Part shown: one piece after another, positions 1 through 3,717 of the stretch
How the letters are laid out: every line of letters begins with the position of its first letter
Position numbering within the stretch: the first letter of the stretch is position 1
IMG/VR virus record: IMGVR_UViG_2690316115_000029
From: a virus
Lineage: Duplodnaviria; Heunggongvirae; Uroviricota; Caudoviricetes
Length of the DNA stretch: 3,773 bases
Direction: 5' to 3' (one strand)
Translations under genes and position numbers: made by a program
Notes under the pieces: model-generated
What the model saw: only the letters and a program-made list of their open reading frames with translations
What the model was told of the DNA's origin: nothing
Databases searched by the model: none

Positions 1-1230
1 ATGAGCAGAGCACTTAACAAACTGAGCGATACACAGCTGAGGAAAATCAACGGCACACCCGCCCAAAAAACAGCCTTTCTTAATGACGGTGGAAACCTGA
101 GCGTCAGGCATTCAACCAGTGGCCTTTTAACCTGGTATTTCACTTACAGGGCCGGAACGGGAAGGGGGGCACCACCGGAACGCATTAAGCTGGGAAATTA
201 TCCTGATCTGAGCCTGAAATCAGCCAGGGAAAAAGCCGCCCAGTGTCGCGCATGGCTGGCAGAGGGGAAAAATCCACGTCATGAGCTTAATTACACCGTA
301 CAGGAAGCGTTAAAGCCGGTAACGGTTGGCGATGCGCTCACCTACTGGCTTGAGTCGTACGCAAAGGAAAACCGCGTGGATTATGCCGCCCTGAAAAAGC
401 GCCTTAATAATCACGTAATACAGCACATTGGTGCTATGCCGCTGGATAAATGCGAGCTACGGCACTGGCTGGCCTGTTTTGACCAGGTGGCAAAGCGAAC
501 GCCTGTTACTGCCGGATTCTTGCTACAGACGTGCAAACAGGCGCTTAAGTTCTGCCGGAGGCGGCGCTATGCAATCAGCAACGTTCTTGATGATATGAGT
601 GTGGCGGACGTTGGGAAAAAACCGGATATAAGCGAGCGTGTCTTAAGCACCAAAGAACTTGGCGAATTATTGCAGGCACTGGACAAAAAAATATTTTCCC
701 CTTACTACGTCGCACTAATCCGCCTCCTGATTGTTTTCGGATGCCGGACGGTAGAACTGAGGTTATCGGAGATCAGCGAGTGGGATTTTACCGAAATGCT
801 CTGGACCGTGCCGAAAGAACACAGCAAAACGAAGGTGGCAATATTCCGGCCCATACCGGAAGCAATACTGCCGTTCGTCACGCAGCTGGTGGAGCAGAAC
901 AGGCACACGGGCTTATTGCTGGGGGAAGTGAAACAGGAAACAAGCGTGTCGCAGTACGGCAGATTAGCGCACAGGAGGCTAAAACACCCTCACTGGTCAC
1001 TGCATGACATCCGGCGCACCTTTACAACGATGCTGAACGATTTAGGCGTGGATCCTCACGTCGTGGAGCAGCTTACAGGTCATCAGATGCCAGGGATGCA
1101 ACGAGTCTATAACCATTCCCGTTATCTGGATGCGAAACGTGACGCGCTGGATATGTGGACGGAGCGGTTAGGGATACTGGCGGGAACACATGAAAATGTA
1201 ACCACATTGCCAATAGCCAGAGAAATATAA
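1..1230 (+). CDS. int: Tyrosine-type site-specific recombinase (integrase, P4-like domain architecture)
   Basis: 409-codon ORF from the track, stop TAA at 1228-1230. N-terminal arm-type region (LSDTQLRK...WYFTYRAG...KLGNYPDLSLKSAREKA...WLAEGKNP) resembles integrase N-terminal DNA-binding domains. C-terminal catalytic motifs are visible: GCRTVELR (box I Arg), HDIRRTF (His-x-x-Arg), LTGHQ, and VYNHSRY (nucleophile Tyr region). The ATG is at window position 1, so the true start and any upstream att site or promoter cannot be judged. Confidence 0.93.
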   Translation: MSRALNKLSDTQLRKINGTPAQKTAFLNDGGNLSVRHSTSGLLTWYFTYRAGTGRGAPPERIKLGNYPDLSLKSAREKAAQCRAWLAEGKNPRHELNYTVQEALKPVTVGDALTYWLESYAKENRVDYAALKKRLNNHVIQHIGAMPLDKCELRHWLACFDQVAKRTPVTAGFLLQTCKQALKFCRRRRYAISNVLDDMSVADVGKKPDISERVLSTKELGELLQALDKKIFSPYYVALIRLLIVFGCRTVELRLSEISEWDFTEMLWTVPKEHSKTKVAIFRPIPEAILPFVTQLVEQNRHTGLLLGEVKQETSVSQYGRLAHRRLKHPHWSLHDIRRTFTTMLNDLGVDPHVVEQLTGHQMPGMQRVYNHSRYLDAKRDALDMWTERLGILAGTHENVTTLPIAREI

Positions 1231-1257: not shown

Positions 1258-1317
1258 ACAACGTGAAACAACGAGACACAACGACGAACAACAAGGAACA
1301 AAATGGAACAACGGGTT
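1258..1317. repeat. Six tandem 10-bp direct repeats, consensus ACAACGnGnA, in exact 10-bp register
   Basis: Read directly: ACAACGTGAA, ACAACGAGAC, ACAACGACGA, ACAACAAGGA, ACAAAATGGA, ACAACGGGTT starting at 1258, 1268, 1278, 1288, 1298 and 1308. The array begins 28 bp after the int stop. Function is unknown. Confidence 0.8.
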
Positions 1318-1332
1318 AAAAATCAGCCATCG

Positions 1333-1595: not shown

Positions 1596-1784
1596 GTGTT
1601 AAGCACAGATCGCTTTATACGTGAAAAAGAATGTCAGCAACTTACAGGCCTGAGCCGCTCATGTCGGTACCGCCTGGAAAAAGCCGGACAATTCCCATCA
1701 CGGCGTAAGCTGGGCGGTCGTTCCGTTGGCTGGTCTTTATCCGAAGTTCTGGCATGGAAGGACAGCTGCGAGGCAGTTCACTAA
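1596..1784 (+). CDS. alpA: AlpA-family prophage regulator / excisionase-like helix-turn-helix protein
   Basis: 62-codon ORF with GTG start at 1596, preceded by a strong SD (GGGGG at 1587-1591, 4-nt spacer). Stop TAA at 1782-1784. Sequence carries the AlpA/Vis-type pattern: HTH QQLTGLSRSCRYRLEKAGQFP followed by RRKLGGRSVGWSLSEVLAW. Position immediately downstream of an integrase fits this family. Confidence 0.85.
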   Translation: MLSTDRFIREKECQQLTGLSRSCRYRLEKAGQFPSRRKLGGRSVGWSLSEVLAWKDSCEAVH

Positions 1785-1790
1785 TCAGGC

Positions 1791-1809
1791 TGGCGGCACA
1801 CAGCCGCCA
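1791..1809 (+). other. Perfect 7-bp stem / 5-nt loop hairpin 7 nt after the alpA stop, no U-tract
   Basis: TGGCGGC (1791-1797), loop ACACA, GCCGCCA (1803-1809). Followed by CCCATCCACTAAT, so it is not a canonical intrinsic terminator on either strand. Confidence 0.5.
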
Positions 1810-1836
1810 CCCATCCACTAATACAGAGATCTAACC

Positions 1837-3255
1837 ATGAATACTGGATATTCTCCCGAACAAGGGCGGGGCTTCGTTCGTCCTGAAAAACAGAATCTGC
1901 AAAATTTTGCCGAAATTATTCCGGTTATTTCCGGCCTTACTGGCGGGAGTGAAACCAATATTGTTAACGCCAGAGCGTTGCAGATGTTTGATGATAAAAA
2001 GGGAGTAAATTTAACTTACACCCCTGACGGCAATCAGAATATGAGCATTATCTCTGAGTCAGGTTTCTACAAACTAATAAAAACAAAAAGCGCCCCGTTG
2101 CCGGAGCGCCTTTGTGAACAATTAACCAACTGCGCAAAAAATGAATCTGAGCAGTGGGATTATATCAACCATGTGGAGAAGCGCCACAATTGCCGAATAA
2201 CGGGCAAAACAAAGGCCACCCGCTACGGTGGCCCCTCGACACAAGCTACACGTTATCCCCAACGCATGAGCATTGCCAACAATGCCACATTTGCGGCTGG
2301 TGGGCAATGCAATCAGTCTGGTTCAGTTCGTTGCCATACCTGCAATGAGCGCTTTTCCCTGTACTCTTTAAGGAATTGCTCAAGGGCAAAAGCACATGGC
2401 GCGAATCTTTCTGATTCATGCTCTATCTTTCTGCGCCGTCTTTTCCGTGCCGGTGATAATGTTTTGGTCAATTCTTTATCGGTCATTGTGTTGTCCTGCA
2501 TAGCAATGCGCCGTAATACCTTACACCACGGCGCTGATGGTGATTACTCTGGTTCTTTGGTCTTGCGGCGCTGGAGTTCTTCACGTGCGACAGTGACGAG
2601 CTGCCCGATCTCCTCGGCGGCTTTGATTCCGAGTTTTTCCACCTGCGCCAGTGCATCGAGCGAAGAAACCAGGGGATTTTCTCCACTTCCTTCTGCCTGG
2701 CGCCGGGCGATCTCACCGCGTACAGCCGTAACTATAAAATTCGCTTTAGTTTCCCCTGGCTGTAGGGATGCCTCAATGCCACTCACTACTTCATGTGGAA
2801 ATCTGGCATTCAGTTGCTGTGACTTATTGTTAACAGAACTCCTGGACATGTTTGCACCTCCCATTAATAACGGGATGCAGTGTAATACAAAAGTGAATAC
2901 CAAAAAAGACTTGAAATGGTATTCACCTAAATGTAATGTGAATACCACAAGTGCTGATACATGCAATTCAGCAATTGAAACGACGAAGCCCCGCACTGTT
3001 GGAGCAGTAACGGGGCTTCTAACCACCAACGATAACGAGAGTATCGAGGTAGCTATGAGAAATCATACCACACACCCGCAAGGGCGGGACTCGCACAACC
3101 TGAATAAATACATCTGGCGTTTTATCGCCCTGAGCACTGCACAACCGCGCGTGATTACCATTGAGGCCACCAGCGAACAGGAAGCACGCCAGCAATCTCC
3201 GGCTGGCTGCGTGATGGTATTTGCTGCCCGTATTCGTCAGGGGGTAGGCTTATGA
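1837..3255 (+). CDS. Long open frame with Bro-N-like N-terminal domain; only the first ~110 codons look coding (probable truncated gene or remnant)
   Basis: 472-codon ORF from the track, ATG 1837 with no convincing SD. Residues ~50-100 (FDDKKGVNLTYTPDGNQNMSIISESGFYKLIKTKSAPLPERL) resemble the conserved core of Bro-N antirepressor-type domains (D-D-x-K-G ... G-x-Q-x-[ML]-x-[IV]-I-x-E-S-G-[LF]-Y-x-L-I ... S-x-P). From about codon 120 the translation is Ser/Cys/Arg/Ala-rich low complexity. It runs antisense through a minus-strand terminator (2203-2235) and two better-supported minus-strand genes. Confidence 0.3.
   Translation: MNTGYSPEQGRGFVRPEKQNLQNFAEIIPVISGLTGGSETNIVNARALQMFDDKKGVNLTYTPDGNQNMSIISESGFYKLIKTKSAPLPERLCEQLTNCAKNESEQWDYINHVEKRHNCRITGKTKATRYGGPSTQATRYPQRMSIANNATFAAGGQCNQSGSVRCHTCNERFSLYSLRNCSRAKAHGANLSDSCSIFLRRLFRAGDNVLVNSLSVIVLSCIAMRRNTLHHGADGDYSGSLVLRRWSSSRATVTSCPISSAALIPSFSTCASASSEETRGFSPLPSAWRRAISPRTAVTIKFALVSPGCRDASMPLTTSCGNLAFSCCDLLLTELLDMFAPPINNGMQCNTKVNTKKDLKWYSPKCNVNTTSADTCNSAIETTKPRTVGAVTGLLTTNDNESIEVAMRNHTTHPQGRDSHNLNKYIWRFIALSTAQPRVITIEATSEQEARQQSPAGCVMVFAARIRQGVGL
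2203..2235 (-). terminator. Rho-independent terminator for leftward transcription
   Basis: GGCCACC (2214-2220), loop CGCTAC, GGTGGCC (2227-2233). On the minus strand the stem is followed by TTTGTTTTG (plus-strand AAAACAAA at 2206-2213). No T-run follows it on the plus strand. Confidence 0.6.
2313..2501 (-). CDS. Small basic hypothetical protein (57-62 aa), second gene of the leftward cassette
   Basis: Track ORF MQDNTMTDKELTKTLSPARKRRRRKIEHESERFAPCAFALEQFLKEYREKRSLQVWQRTEPD. It starts 42 bp downstream of the Arc-like stop and ends about 80 bp before the minus-strand terminator. The internal ATG at 2486 has an AGGA 7 nt upstream and may be the real start. Against it: weak RBS at 2501 and several rare codons (AGA, CGG, ATA, TTA). 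Confidence 0.3.
   Translation of the reverse strand: MQDNTMTDKELTKTLSPARKRRRRKIEHESERFAPCAFALEQFLKEYREKRSLQVWQRTEPD
2544..2849 (-). CDS. Arc/Mnt-type ribbon-helix-helix DNA-binding protein (putative repressor), 101 aa
   Basis: Start chosen at ATG 2849 (residue 61 of the 161-codon track ORF) because GGGAGGTG lies 5 nt upstream; the track start at 3029 is TTG with no RBS. Product MSRSSVNNKSQQLNARFPHEVVSGIEASLQPGETKANFIVTAVRGEIARRQ... matches the Arc/Mnt N-terminal pattern (beta-strand N-x-R-[FW]-P-x-E-V, then two helices; compare P22 Arc NLRWPREV). Stop TAA at 2544-2546. Confidence 0.7.
   Translation of the reverse strand: MSRSSVNNKSQQLNARFPHEVVSGIEASLQPGETKANFIVTAVRGEIARRQAEGSGENPLVSSLDALAQVEKLGIKAAEEIGQLVTVAREELQRRKTKEPE
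2881..2946. promoter_or_regulatory. Operator-like repeats in the divergent control region: GTGAATACC twice direct, once inverted
   Basis: GTGAATACC at 2893-2901 and 2938-2946; its reverse complement GGTATTCAC at 2918-2926. TGTAAT at 2881-2886 and 2932-2937. The nearest copy is 44 bp upstream of the Arc-like start codon. Promoters for both divergent units must lie in 2850-3054, but no hexamers were confidently assigned. Confidence 0.55.
2985..3019. other. Long imperfect hairpin in the divergent intergenic region
   Basis: GAAGCCCCG (2985-2993) pairs with CGGGGCTTC (3011-3019). Inner ACTG (2995-2998) pairs with CAGT (3005-3008). No clean U-tract on the plus strand; only a weakly T-rich tail on the minus strand. 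Confidence 0.45.
3055..3255 (+). CDS. Small hypothetical protein (66 aa), candidate first gene of the rightward operon
   Basis: ATG 3055 with GAGG 5 nt upstream. Product MRNHTTHPQGRDSHNLNKYIWRFIALSTAQPRVITIEATSEQEARQQSPAGCVMVFAARIRQGVGL. Its TGA stop (3253-3255) overlaps the next ATG (3252) in an ATGA arrangement. It is the 3' end of the 472-codon frame, so it may be an artefact of that open frame. Confidence 0.35.
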   Translation: MRNHTTHPQGRDSHNLNKYIWRFIALSTAQPRVITIEATSEQEARQQSPAGCVMVFAARIRQGVGL

Positions 3256-3485
3256 GCCAGGAAATCACACTACAACAGGCAGCAGAACGCGCCCACCAAA
3301 TCGAAGTTATTTGCGCACTGGCAGAGGATTACCCTGGCATGATGACCGACAGCGAATCAGGGGCAATCATCGGCTTACTTAAACGCCTTAGCGGTGAGGT
3401 CTGCGTATTCCTGAGCGATGAACAGGAAAGAAGAACGCTTATTTCTAACGAAAAAAAATGCGGAGGGGTACACCATGTGCAATAA
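3252..3485 (+). CDS. Hypothetical protein (77 aa)
   Basis: Track ORF; ATG 3252 preceded by AGGGGGTAGG (3239-3248). Composition is ordinary and protein-like. The last 11 nt overlap the next gene. No family recognised. Confidence 0.55.
   Translation: MSQEITLQQAAERAHQIEVICALAEDYPGMMTDSESGAIIGLLKRLSGEVCVFLSDEQERRTLISNEKKCGGVHHVQ
3451..3458 (+). repeat. A8 homopolymer at the junction of the 3252 and 3475 ORFs
   Basis: Read directly (aacgAAAAAAAAtgcgg). In the 3252 ORF it encodes E-K-K (gaa aaa aaa). The downstream ORF is in the +1 frame relative to it. Confidence 0.9.
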
Positions 3486-3717
3486 CATCCGTCCGGACGC
3501 AGCCGCCGCCGCACTCACTACGCTGATGCACGCGCTTATTGATATTGAATGCACGGCAGAGCTTGCACAAAAGGAAGAACGGGAGGAATACACATTGTTC
3601 GCCCTGGAATGTATCCGATACATCGCAACGCGGTCGCTGAATGACGCTAAAAATATTCTTGTTGCTGATTGTGAAAATGGGGGGGGGTTATGCGTGATGA
3701 TCGTTTTAATTCCCTGA
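3475..3717 (+). CDS. Hypothetical protein (80 aa); start moved to the internal ATG with an RBS
   Basis: Track ORF 3418-3717, but ATG 3418 has no SD whereas ATG 3475 has GGAGGGG (3462-3468) 6 nt upstream. Product MCNNIRPDAAAAALTTLMHALIDIECTAELAQKEEREEYTLFALECIRYIATRSLNDAKNILVADCENGGGLCVMIVLIP. Stop TGA at 3715-3717. Confidence 0.5.
   Translation: MCNNIRPDAAAAALTTLMHALIDIECTAELAQKEEREEYTLFALECIRYIATRSLNDAKNILVADCENGGGLCVMIVLIP
3679..3687 (+). repeat. G9 homopolymer doubling as Gly codons of the 3475 ORF and as the SD of the 3690 ORF
   Basis: Read directly (aaaatGGGGGGGGGttATG). Encodes G-G-G in the 3475 ORF, and lies 2 nt upstream of ATG 3690. Confidence 0.9.

Follow-up and report, generated by a model that had tools for sequence, protein, structure and literature searches.

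The 3,773-nucleotide stretch of viral DNA analysed here (IMG/VR record IMGVR_UViG_2690316115_000029; Caudoviricetes), referred to below as the window, is the left end of an Escherichia coli phage-inducible chromosomal island (PICI) of the EcCICFT073 type. It is 98.1% identical to CFT073 1377930-1381562, that is to EcCICFT073 itself, located between roxA and phoQ, and islands of several other strains are 99.2% identical to the window. The organization is that by which Gram-negative PICIs are recognised: int and alpA stand in the same orientation at the left end, with a replication module after them, and the insertion is at a specific chromosomal site. Primase, capsid and decoration genes are present in the island, and the int/alpA end of the window corresponds to c1499/c1500 as given in PMC6092414. 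The subject of this analysis is a leftward cassette of two genes, placed between alpA and an Icd/Kil-like gene, which code for a ribbon-helix-helix (RHH) protein and for a small, highly basic protein. Both genes, the spacer between them and the whole candidate operator region lie antisense inside a stop-free rightward frame at 1837-3255. From comparison of sequences, we consider it rather probable that the cassette is an immunity-type control module of Gram-negative PICIs which is bypassed by AlpA-driven read-through. The features on which the argument turns are listed first, followed by the neighbouring genes.

1837-3255, plus strand: long stop-free, 'eta-like' frame of 472 aa, opening 53 nt beyond the alpA stop and closing as Icd.
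2313-2486, minus strand: gene of the small basic protein, 57 aa, with an arginine-rich tract (SPARKRRRRK) and then the conserved helix ERFAPCAFALEQFLKEY.
2544-2849, minus strand: gene of the predicted RHH repressor, an open reading frame (ORF) of 101 aa with an N-terminal RHH domain (about residues 8-52) and a long C-terminal helix (59-98).
2855-2862, minus strand: Shine-Dalgarno sequence GGGAGGTG of the RHH gene, read from the sequence, 5 nt before the ATG at 2849.
2516-3012, no strand assigned: exchangeable specificity block, made up of the RHH gene and the operator/promoter region, as seen in the comparison of the window with CFT073.
2879-2887, minus strand: candidate -10 element of the leftward promoter P_L (TACACT/TATTAC), weak in the window allele and proposed from other alleles.
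2893-2902, plus strand: candidate operator copy 1, GTGAATACCA, lying within the spacer/-35 part of the leftward promoter.
2911-2939, plus strand: predicted rightward promoter P_R, TTGAAA (2911-2916), 17 nt, TAATGT (2934-2939), placed by positional conservation.
2917-2926, minus strand: candidate operator copy 2, GTGAATACCA inverted, which begins right behind the -35 of the rightward promoter and takes up its spacer.
2938-2947, plus strand: candidate operator copy 3, GTGAATACCA, overlapping the -10 end and the start site of the rightward promoter.
3055-3255, plus strand: Icd/Kil-like gene, 66 aa, the end part of the long ORF (NF033153, E 1.4e-19).
1596-1784, plus strand: alpA (Pfam Phage_AlpA, E 3e-18).
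1-1230, plus strand: int, at the left end of the island.

The two leftward genes are where the initial annotation of this DNA had placed them (RHH 2544-2849, small ORF 2313-2501), and the strong ribosome-binding site that it had described for the first is the GGGAGGTG sequence listed above. It had also called the RHH protein Arc/Mnt-type; an RHH fold is predicted here as well, and membership in the Pfam Arc/Mnt families is not supported. The 101-aa protein belongs to NCBIfam NF041551, YlcI/YnfO_N, scoring 60.8 bits (cutoff 30; E 9.6e-17), with residues 9-50 covering the full 42-position model, and falls in PHROG 6522, a cluster with no assigned function. Pfam Arc (PF03869), RHH_1 CopG (PF01402) and MetJ gave no match to it at E values up to 10, and Pfam scans of the full-length protein, of its N-terminal half and of the 59-aa alleles described below found no RHH family; its single Pfam match, PSK_trans_fac, is below threshold (17.5 bits vs 28.3). 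When the profile of the N-terminal 54 residues was aligned by hhalign with a profile of Arc and Mnt, the two ran in register (probability 75.6%, E 2.4e-5). The alignment pairs Q12-x-N14-x-R16 of the predicted β-strand (QQLNARF) with Q9/N11/R13 of Arc, and the conserved G-E-S/T turn with its G-R-S. In the AlphaFold2 (AF2) monomer (pLDDT 76) both RHH helices are seen, together with a long C-terminal helix (residues 59-98) that is modelled with confidence; the β-strand appears there in helical form, which may happen when the dimer partner is missing. We take the N-terminal domain to be a predicted RHH fold.

Homologues of 96-111 aa are found across Enterobacterales. A second form, of 59 aa, lacks the C-terminal helix and includes EcCICFT073's own allele; by analogy, the long form may be Mnt-like and the short one Arc-like. 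Across genera, residues 52-101 are more conserved than the DNA-binding half. Other searches added little: profile searches against PDB sequences returned weak non-RHH matches only, Foldseek of the model against the PDB returned none, and tblastn of the RHH protein against 50,697 phage records found no match (one record matched Icd). One of these PDB matches, a weak resemblance of the C-terminal half to the helix-hairpin-helix of Hef (E 0.024), was not relied on. A contig scan with the RHH profile, which used one peptide pattern, gave at least six loci. PADLOC reported no defence system among four proteins, and a literature search found no paper on what YlcI/YnfO proteins or this cassette do, and none that gives RHH/YlcI proteins a role in PICIs.

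The second gene was described initially as a 57-62-aa ORF with the tract ARKRRRRK, 42 nt after the RHH stop, and is present as such. The upstream ATG at 2501 gives the 62-aa ORF (2313-2501, minus strand). The ATG at 2486 is more likely the true start, judging from an AGGA 7 nt upstream and from the homologues, nearly all of which begin MTDKE or MNDKE at this point; the PGAP start is the same. From this start the spacer is 57 nt, and the layout of RHH gene and small ORF recurs with the same spacer in many different island backbones. Small-ORF homologues form 96 clusters, all from Escherichia or Shigella, with 44-98% identity. All of them carry hypothetical or unnamed annotations except for a single stray JGI 'RelE' label, and no Pfam domain was found in any cluster. 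The window protein itself has no match in Pfam, NCBIfam or PADLOC and belongs to PHROG 21027, again with no assigned function. AF2 models it as a disordered basic N-terminus and a single helix (24-54). Conserved features are S-P-x-R-K...R, an acidic stretch and F-A-P-C-x-F-A-L-E-x-F-L-K; a distant 69-aa variant retains only the helix, FALDEFLNK.

As noted at the outset, the basic tract contains rare codons (AGA, CGG, ATA), and the initial annotation had offered a non-coding 3' untranslated region (UTR) as the alternative to a gene. The ORF is kept in all 96 clusters and the indels are in-frame. The latter was dropped as proof of coding, as the overlapping plus frame imposes the same multiple-of-three rule, and a test of discordant wobble sites was used instead. 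In all loci the two frames are in the same register, in which the wobble positions of both strands coincide, and each difference can therefore be classed by its effect in either frame. Fisher p values were calculated on the discordant classes; the compared pairs are not independent, which limits how these values can be read. In the 101-aa RHH gene, differences silent in the minus frame and replacing in the plus frame amount to 73/529 (0.138), those replacing in the minus frame and silent in the plus frame to 26/733 (0.035), and those silent in both to 0.171 (p 5e-11). The corresponding values for the small ORF are 24/178 (0.135), 6/238 (0.025) and 0.132 (p 2.7e-5). The counts for the 59-aa RHH alleles, 1/69 vs 3/136, come from too few informative sites. 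Changes that replace residues of the leftward proteins are thus 4-5 times rarer than those that replace residues of the rightward one only. The discordant classes indicate that both leftward ORFs encode proteins under purifying selection, and that the plus frame is kept open across them with its amino-acid sequence unconstrained; the readings as a 3' UTR and as an antisense artefact are rejected on the same grounds.

These counts also bear on the converse proposal, that the long plus-strand ORF is the sole real gene, a fusion running from Bro-N to Icd, and the leftward ORFs are accidental antisense. The plus frame is strongly maintained, and in several genomes PGAP labels parts of it as Icd-like or BRO-N pseudogenes. 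Wobble changes that replace only in the plus frame are nevertheless as frequent as doubly silent ones (0.138 and 0.135 vs 0.171 and 0.132), and it is those replacing in the minus frame that are depleted. Moreover, the RHH protein belongs to an independently curated family whose founders stand in other contexts (ylcI in DLP12). We regard the fusion as hardly credible.

The RHH gene and its flank differ sharply from their surroundings when the window is compared with CFT073: the two are near-identical from 1780 to about 2515 and again from about 3013 on, and strongly divergent in between. The RHH gene and the adjacent region of about 205 bp are thus exchanged between islands as one block, in the pattern of lambdoid immunity regions. 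The region between the RHH start and the icd start measures 190-205 bp and has a single layout in every allele examined, including those of Enterobacter soli, of Xenorhabdus and of a P4-like E. coli island. The strict promoter scan was followed by a search for positional conservation across alleles, and it is by the latter that the promoters were located. All 12 alleles scanned, Enterobacter and Xenorhabdus included, have TTGACn-17/18-TAAnTT at intergenic nt 62-67 and 85-90, a predicted rightward promoter about 115 nt 5' of the icd ATG and inside the long ORF. Leftward, other alleles have TATATT, TATAAT or CATACT at intergenic nt 30-36. In the window, GTGAATACCA occurs as three exact 10-mers at 21-24-bp spacing, confined to the RHH-icd intergenic region; no operator-like site was found in the vicinity of the alpA promoter. 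Other alleles carry repeats of their own, 9-12 bp long, at about nt 21, 46, 67 and 91, on both sides of each -10.

The core of the repeat covaries with residues 12 and 14 of the RHH strand, with R16 invariant, in the computational comparison of alleles (loci are given as L numbers):

Residues 12/14 Q/N: operator core GTGAAT; window, L028.
Residues 12/14 S/T: operator core GTGTAAGAC; E. coli L003/L005, Enterobacter L008, 59-aa L018.
Residues 12/14 T/A: operator core GTGTTCAACAC; L006, L024, L026.
Residues 12/14 L/T: operator core GTGTGTTTC; Xenorhabdus L011/L013, E. coli L027.
Residues 12/14 M/T: operator core GTGTATTTCAC; L020.
Residues 12/14 Q/S: operator core TGTGATTCAG; L023.
Residues 12/14 A/K: operator core GTGGGCCACACC; CFT073.

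Because of the block exchange, the candidate operators around a conserved promoter and the covariation with the strand residues, the RHH protein fits an autoregulated, immunity-type repressor of the icd/replication operon. This is the role of immunity or maintenance repressor that had been suggested for it at first. That suggestion was made in part from its position divergent from a rightward operon of small genes; the divergent arrangement is there, but the cassette is also antisense inside a conserved plus-strand ORF that ends as icd.

Further RHH genes occupy the same slot. At L007 (2050-2223, minus strand) it is an Arc-like RHH with the palindromic repeat CATGGTAATTACC present twice; PGAP does not annotate it and calls plus-strand pseudogenes there, 'Icd-like' and 'ash family'. 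At L025 (1372-1554, minus strand) a YlcI-like RHH, annotated as YlcI/YnfO family, is accompanied by two copies of the palindromic repeat TGGTACGTACCA. L028 (NZ_CP048371.1 4160299-4163438) is a P4-like island with a DUF5375 protein and a TOPRIM/DUF927 primase. Its 61-aa YlcI/YnfO RHH, which has the β-strand of the window protein and three GGTGCGATTCA repeats, lies between alpA and a Kil-like gene, in the place that the CI RNA has in P4.

An RHH gene followed by a small partner is a common order in type II toxin-antitoxin systems, and the initial annotation had pointed to this layout: the RHH protein would be antitoxin and autorepressor, and the small basic protein the toxin. The structural neighbours of the RHH domain are indeed mostly antitoxins (MazE, TacA, ParD). 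The small protein, with its disordered basic tail and one helix, matches no toxin family. Its ORF is outside the exchanged block and is 100% identical beside at least five RHH alleles, one of them unrelated and Arc-like. Conversely, the RHH gene has no small ORF downstream in Enterobacter, Xenorhabdus, Photorhabdus, L025 and L028, and at L024 and L027 none was annotated or matched. As the small ORF does not covary with the RHH gene and is missing elsewhere, a toxin-antitoxin pair is unlikely. The 59-aa alleles, which have no C-terminal region for neutralising a toxin, and the structured 57-nt spacer between the cistrons also speak against it, and overall we consider this explanation very improbable.

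It is also conceivable that the RHH protein regulates only its own 'moron-like' accessory operon, with the basic protein as payload, for example a factor against helper or competitor phages, and does not act on the replication operon. Genes co-transcribed with prophage repressors often have exclusion functions, as do rexAB with cI in lambda. Operator copy 1 is on the P_L side, and members of the small protein family vary widely (44-98% identity) within a single genus, a distribution often seen in phage-conflict genes. The -10 of the rightward promoter is nevertheless bracketed by two of the three operators, as it is by the corresponding repeats of every allele, and the RHH gene and operators are conserved in genera and at loci that have no small ORF. 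Regulation of an accessory operon alone is considered unlikely. The small protein itself is regarded as an accessory, lineage-restricted product that would be expressed with the repressor and probably binds nucleic acid. More speculatively, and by analogy with N or Nun, it might act on RNA, the targets being transcripts of the helper or of the island.

The long frame in which the cassette is embedded is found open, over 247-628 codons, in nearly all loci examined, with 7-31 stops in each of the other two frames. Enterobacter and Xenorhabdus are represented among these loci, which differ in integrase, alpA gene and RHH type; in CFT073 the frame is open too (428 codons), the exchanged block notwithstanding. 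Twelve loci were subjected to a shuffle test, with synonymous-codon shuffling of the antisense genes and dinucleotide shuffling elsewhere. Stop-free frames were obtained in 0 of 2000 shuffles, the mean number of stops being 7.6-15, and the parts outside the antisense genes remained open in fewer than 0.05% of shuffles. In several alleles a GGGGAG Shine-Dalgarno sequence and an ATG directly follow the alpA stop.

The same architecture is known from the satellite phage P4, in which vis (AlpA family) is followed by eta/kil, epsilon, orf151, orf106 and alpha; the window likewise has alpA, the long ORF and Icd. In both, the terminal ~65 aa of the long ORF are Icd/Kil-like (the P4 ORF at 8168-8812, L014, ends in Kil and matches the Icd-like model with E 1.4e-20, compared with 1.4e-19 for the Icd of the window), small genes and a primase follow, and a promoter for kil/icd, predicted in the case of the window, lies inside the long ORF. 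P_R would be the counterpart of P4 P_LE. The two differ in the immunity element. In P4 this is the cis-encoded CI RNA, which acts by premature termination and has seqA/seqC targets; no match to the C4, isrK or CI RNAs was found by Rfam in the window at E values up to 1, and over the operator/leader region Rfam gave two chance-level matches only (RsaJ, mir-499). The window instead has two opposite-strand protein genes inside the long ORF and candidate protein operators at the internal promoter, and the long ORF is 2-3 times longer (375-479 codons) than that of P4 (~199 codons). On gene order, the RHH module occupies the slot homologous to that of the P4 CI RNA, between vis/alpA and kil/icd. The contrast drawn at first, of a protein-based switch with the RNA-based immunity of P4, therefore agrees with both the gene order and the Rfam result. 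Forti et al., in 1999, reportedly found that transcripts which start at the upstream promoter escape termination when eta of P4 is translated. A summary of how eta acts is given in PMC10111431. By analogy with these nested eta/kil genes, the long frame suggests read-through that is driven by AlpA and protected by translation.

The following sequence of events can be proposed. In the quiescent island, P_L would express the RHH protein and, co-transcribed after the structured 57-nt spacer, the small protein. Dimers of the RHH protein, which the C-terminal helix probably assembles into tetramers in the manner of Mnt, would bind the three GTGAATACCA sites, shutting P_R, and with it the icd/kil-like gene and the replication operon, and autoregulating P_L. 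AlpA is the activator required for induction (PMC6092414); its expression depends on the helper and it activates its own gene (PMC6092414; PMC11773190). When alpA is turned on by the helper phage, transcription from its promoter would extend into the long frame, where translating ribosomes may keep Rho off and block the terminator hairpins, as for P4 eta. With the translated frame protected in this way, polymerase would pass the repressor gene, in convergent interference with P_L, and then the repressed P_R, and would so reach icd and the replication genes. The repressor would thereby be bypassed with no need of an antirepressor. A bypass of this kind would explain why overexpression of AlpA alone induces EcCICFT073 without phage (PMC6092414), and that no antirepressor has been found. 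The global repressor of Gram-negative PICIs has been called 'unclear', with AlpA as master regulator (PMC6092414; PMC11773190).

More specifically, and more tentatively, the frame of 375-480 codons may be selected only for the absence of stops, as a translated 'anti-polarity conduit' in which the repressor, the arginine-rich protein, the operators and the promoters are embedded antisense and through which AlpA-driven transcription overrides the repressor. This would be a protein-immunity version of the eta/kil bypass of P4, with convergent transcription aiding the flip. The parts of such a system are known (RHH repressors with their operators; a nested eta/kil ORF), and their combination, a protein immunity module antisense in a presumably translated but otherwise unconstrained frame, appears to be undescribed.

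Several observations weigh against the proposed account of repressor and bypass. At L004 the frame stops 90 nt before icd, at L009 it is open for only 137 codons upstream of icd, and at L010 and L012 it closes roughly 15 nt short of the icd-like match. Synonymous shuffling left the antisense genes, taken by themselves, open in 12-48% of cases; stop-freeness within them is largely set by their amino-acid sequences. The strict promoter scan of window positions 1780-3100 flagged no promoter, and both P_L and P_R of the window allele are weak consensus matches. The terminator at 2086-2113, described below, has a partial, weak tail on the plus strand (UUUGUG) that could hinder read-through. Finally, the compared loci are related by descent, and neither the covariation nor the wobble-site counts represent independent events.

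A repressor may also be relieved by a helper protein. In this alternative the RHH protein is a repressor lifted by a helper antirepressor that acts on its C-terminal domain, as with Stl in the pathogenicity islands of Staphylococcus aureus (SaPIs), and the long plus frame is either a functional Eta-like protein or irrelevant to induction. The conservation of residues 52-101, which exceeds that of the DNA-binding half across genera, would suit such a target, as would the confident long helix modelled for the C-terminal half. The 59-aa alleles, EcCICFT073's among them, occupy the same slot in related islands without this domain, AlpA overexpression induces that very island in the absence of phage (PMC6092414), and the amino-acid sequence of the plus frame is unconstrained over the cassette. 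Relief by an antirepressor is for these reasons doubtful, and bypass of the RHH repressor by AlpA-driven transcription is preferred.

Comparison with Stl/Rpr, the master repressors of Gram-positive PICIs (SaPIs), nonetheless shows a common layout, in which a leftward repressor gene, divergent from the excision/replication operon, keeps the island quiescent (PMC6092414). Stl proteins are larger helix-turn-helix proteins of unrelated fold, and Stl is lifted by helper antirepressors, whereas induction in the window goes through AlpA and, as proposed here, read-through. Another parallel is the immI region of P22, where the small RHH repressors Mnt and Arc act at repeated operators and divergent promoters to control the ant operon; the 101-aa form resembles Mnt and the 59-aa form Arc, and the window frame carries an Ant/Bro-N-like remnant. 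It differs in that the window RHH has no Pfam Arc match, its gene is antisense inside the frame that it would control, and the target operon comprises Icd and replication genes in place of an antirepressor. YlcI/YnfO (DUF3950) of prophages DLP12 and Qin share NF041551 with the window protein, but ylcI is in the late region of DLP12, divergent from nohD, and not in a satellite control region; pairwise BLASTP of YlcI against the window RHH protein gave no match. In Gram-negative PICIs, a 'Bro zone' with Bro-network genes has been described after int/alpA (PMC10111431, Mageeney et al. 2023). That study counts P4 eta among the Bro-network genes and reports immunity RNAs in some islands; a term search of it found no mention of RHH or opposite-strand genes.

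The N-terminal part of the long frame (window 1837-2110, plus strand) weakly resembles Bro-N/antirepressor proteins over residues ~49-91 (Pfam Bro-N E 0.011; Ant PHROGs ~1e-5). L023 and L027 have an intact, separate Bro-N gene in this position, and in L003 and L005 the Bro-N-like segment is wholly missing. At L018/L019 the frame has 627-628 codons and does not close with the Icd-like segment, after which it goes on into a Phage_ASH domain; the C-terminal domain of the nested arrangement can therefore vary.

The cassette did not arise by chance: its layout recurs as described above, and of 5426 complete E. coli genomes, 1967 have a match to window positions 2200-3060. The cassette would thus represent a candidate repressor-operator module with exchangeable specificity classes in about one third of them, and the model offers a testable account of induction by AlpA without an antirepressor. 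It would also link PICIs with P4-like satellites, which share a vis/alpA-eta/kil chassis and carry either RNA or an RHH protein as the immunity element. The frame is an unusually clean example of antisense overlap, apparently selected on one strand only to stay open. Immunity classes would bear on the use of PICIs as delivery vehicles and on which islands can coexist.

The locus also has a number of hairpins. A hairpin followed by a terminator had been noted downstream of the small ORF, and three structures are found there on the minus strand; they are listed here with the hairpins of the spacer and of the P_R leader:

2508-2534, minus strand: spacer hairpin between the cistrons, GCGCCGUGGUG...UAUUACGGCGC (-17.7 kcal/mol, z -1.7).
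2262-2310, minus strand: hairpin 3' of the small ORF (-22.4 kcal/mol, with an unremarkable z of -1.1).
2202-2236, minus strand: first terminator-like hairpin with U-run, GGGGCCACC-GUAGCG-GGUGGCCUUUGUUUUG (-18.5 kcal/mol).
2086-2113, minus strand: strong intrinsic terminator of leftward transcription, from the terminator scan (-20.5 kcal/mol, z -5.7).
2948-3019, plus strand: two predicted leader hairpins of the P_R transcript, at 2948-2977 and 2985-3019 (GAAGCCCCG...CGGGGCUUC).

In CFT073 the spacer hairpin retains its stem with a different loop, and the spacer is 57 nt in all alleles. The leader at 2945-3054 folds with -37.6 kcal/mol (z -4.4), and its second stem is conserved across alleles and genera with variable loops. 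A third small stem (window 3025-3054, plus strand), CGAUA...UAUCG, has an ACC that pairs with the GGU of the GAGGU Shine-Dalgarno sequence and may partly mask the icd ribosome-binding site; its sequence is conserved among E. coli alleles. In the window allele a GC-rich hairpin with no U-run, GGCUGGCGGC ACAC AGCCGCCACC, separates the alpA stop from the beginning of the long frame (window 1787-1812, plus strand); it is missing from the alleles with a strong Shine-Dalgarno sequence abutting alpA.

In the gap between int and alpA (window 1258-1322), an ACAAC motif is repeated six times at an exact 10-bp spacing (ACAACGTGAA ACAACGAGAC ACAACGACGA ACAACAAGGA ACAAAATGGA ACAACGGGTT), and a related run, ACACCCTGAC ACAATCCGAC ACAAC, occurs at 1519-1543, just 5' of alpA. 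These arrays are helically phased sites, possibly for AlpA or for the arm-binding domain of the integrase. At the other end of the window, the Icd-like gene is followed by more small rightward genes, which in relatives lead to DUF4222 and a primase or helicase. At about 3245-3700 the window was compared with L001/L002: the closest relatives cover only 88% of the window, in two pieces, and a strain whose cassette is identical to that of the window diverges right after icd; the small rightward genes are therefore also mosaic. At a junction of these genes, a run of nine G (3679-3687) directly 5' of the ATG at 3690 could serve as a strong ribosome-binding site or be prone to slippage.

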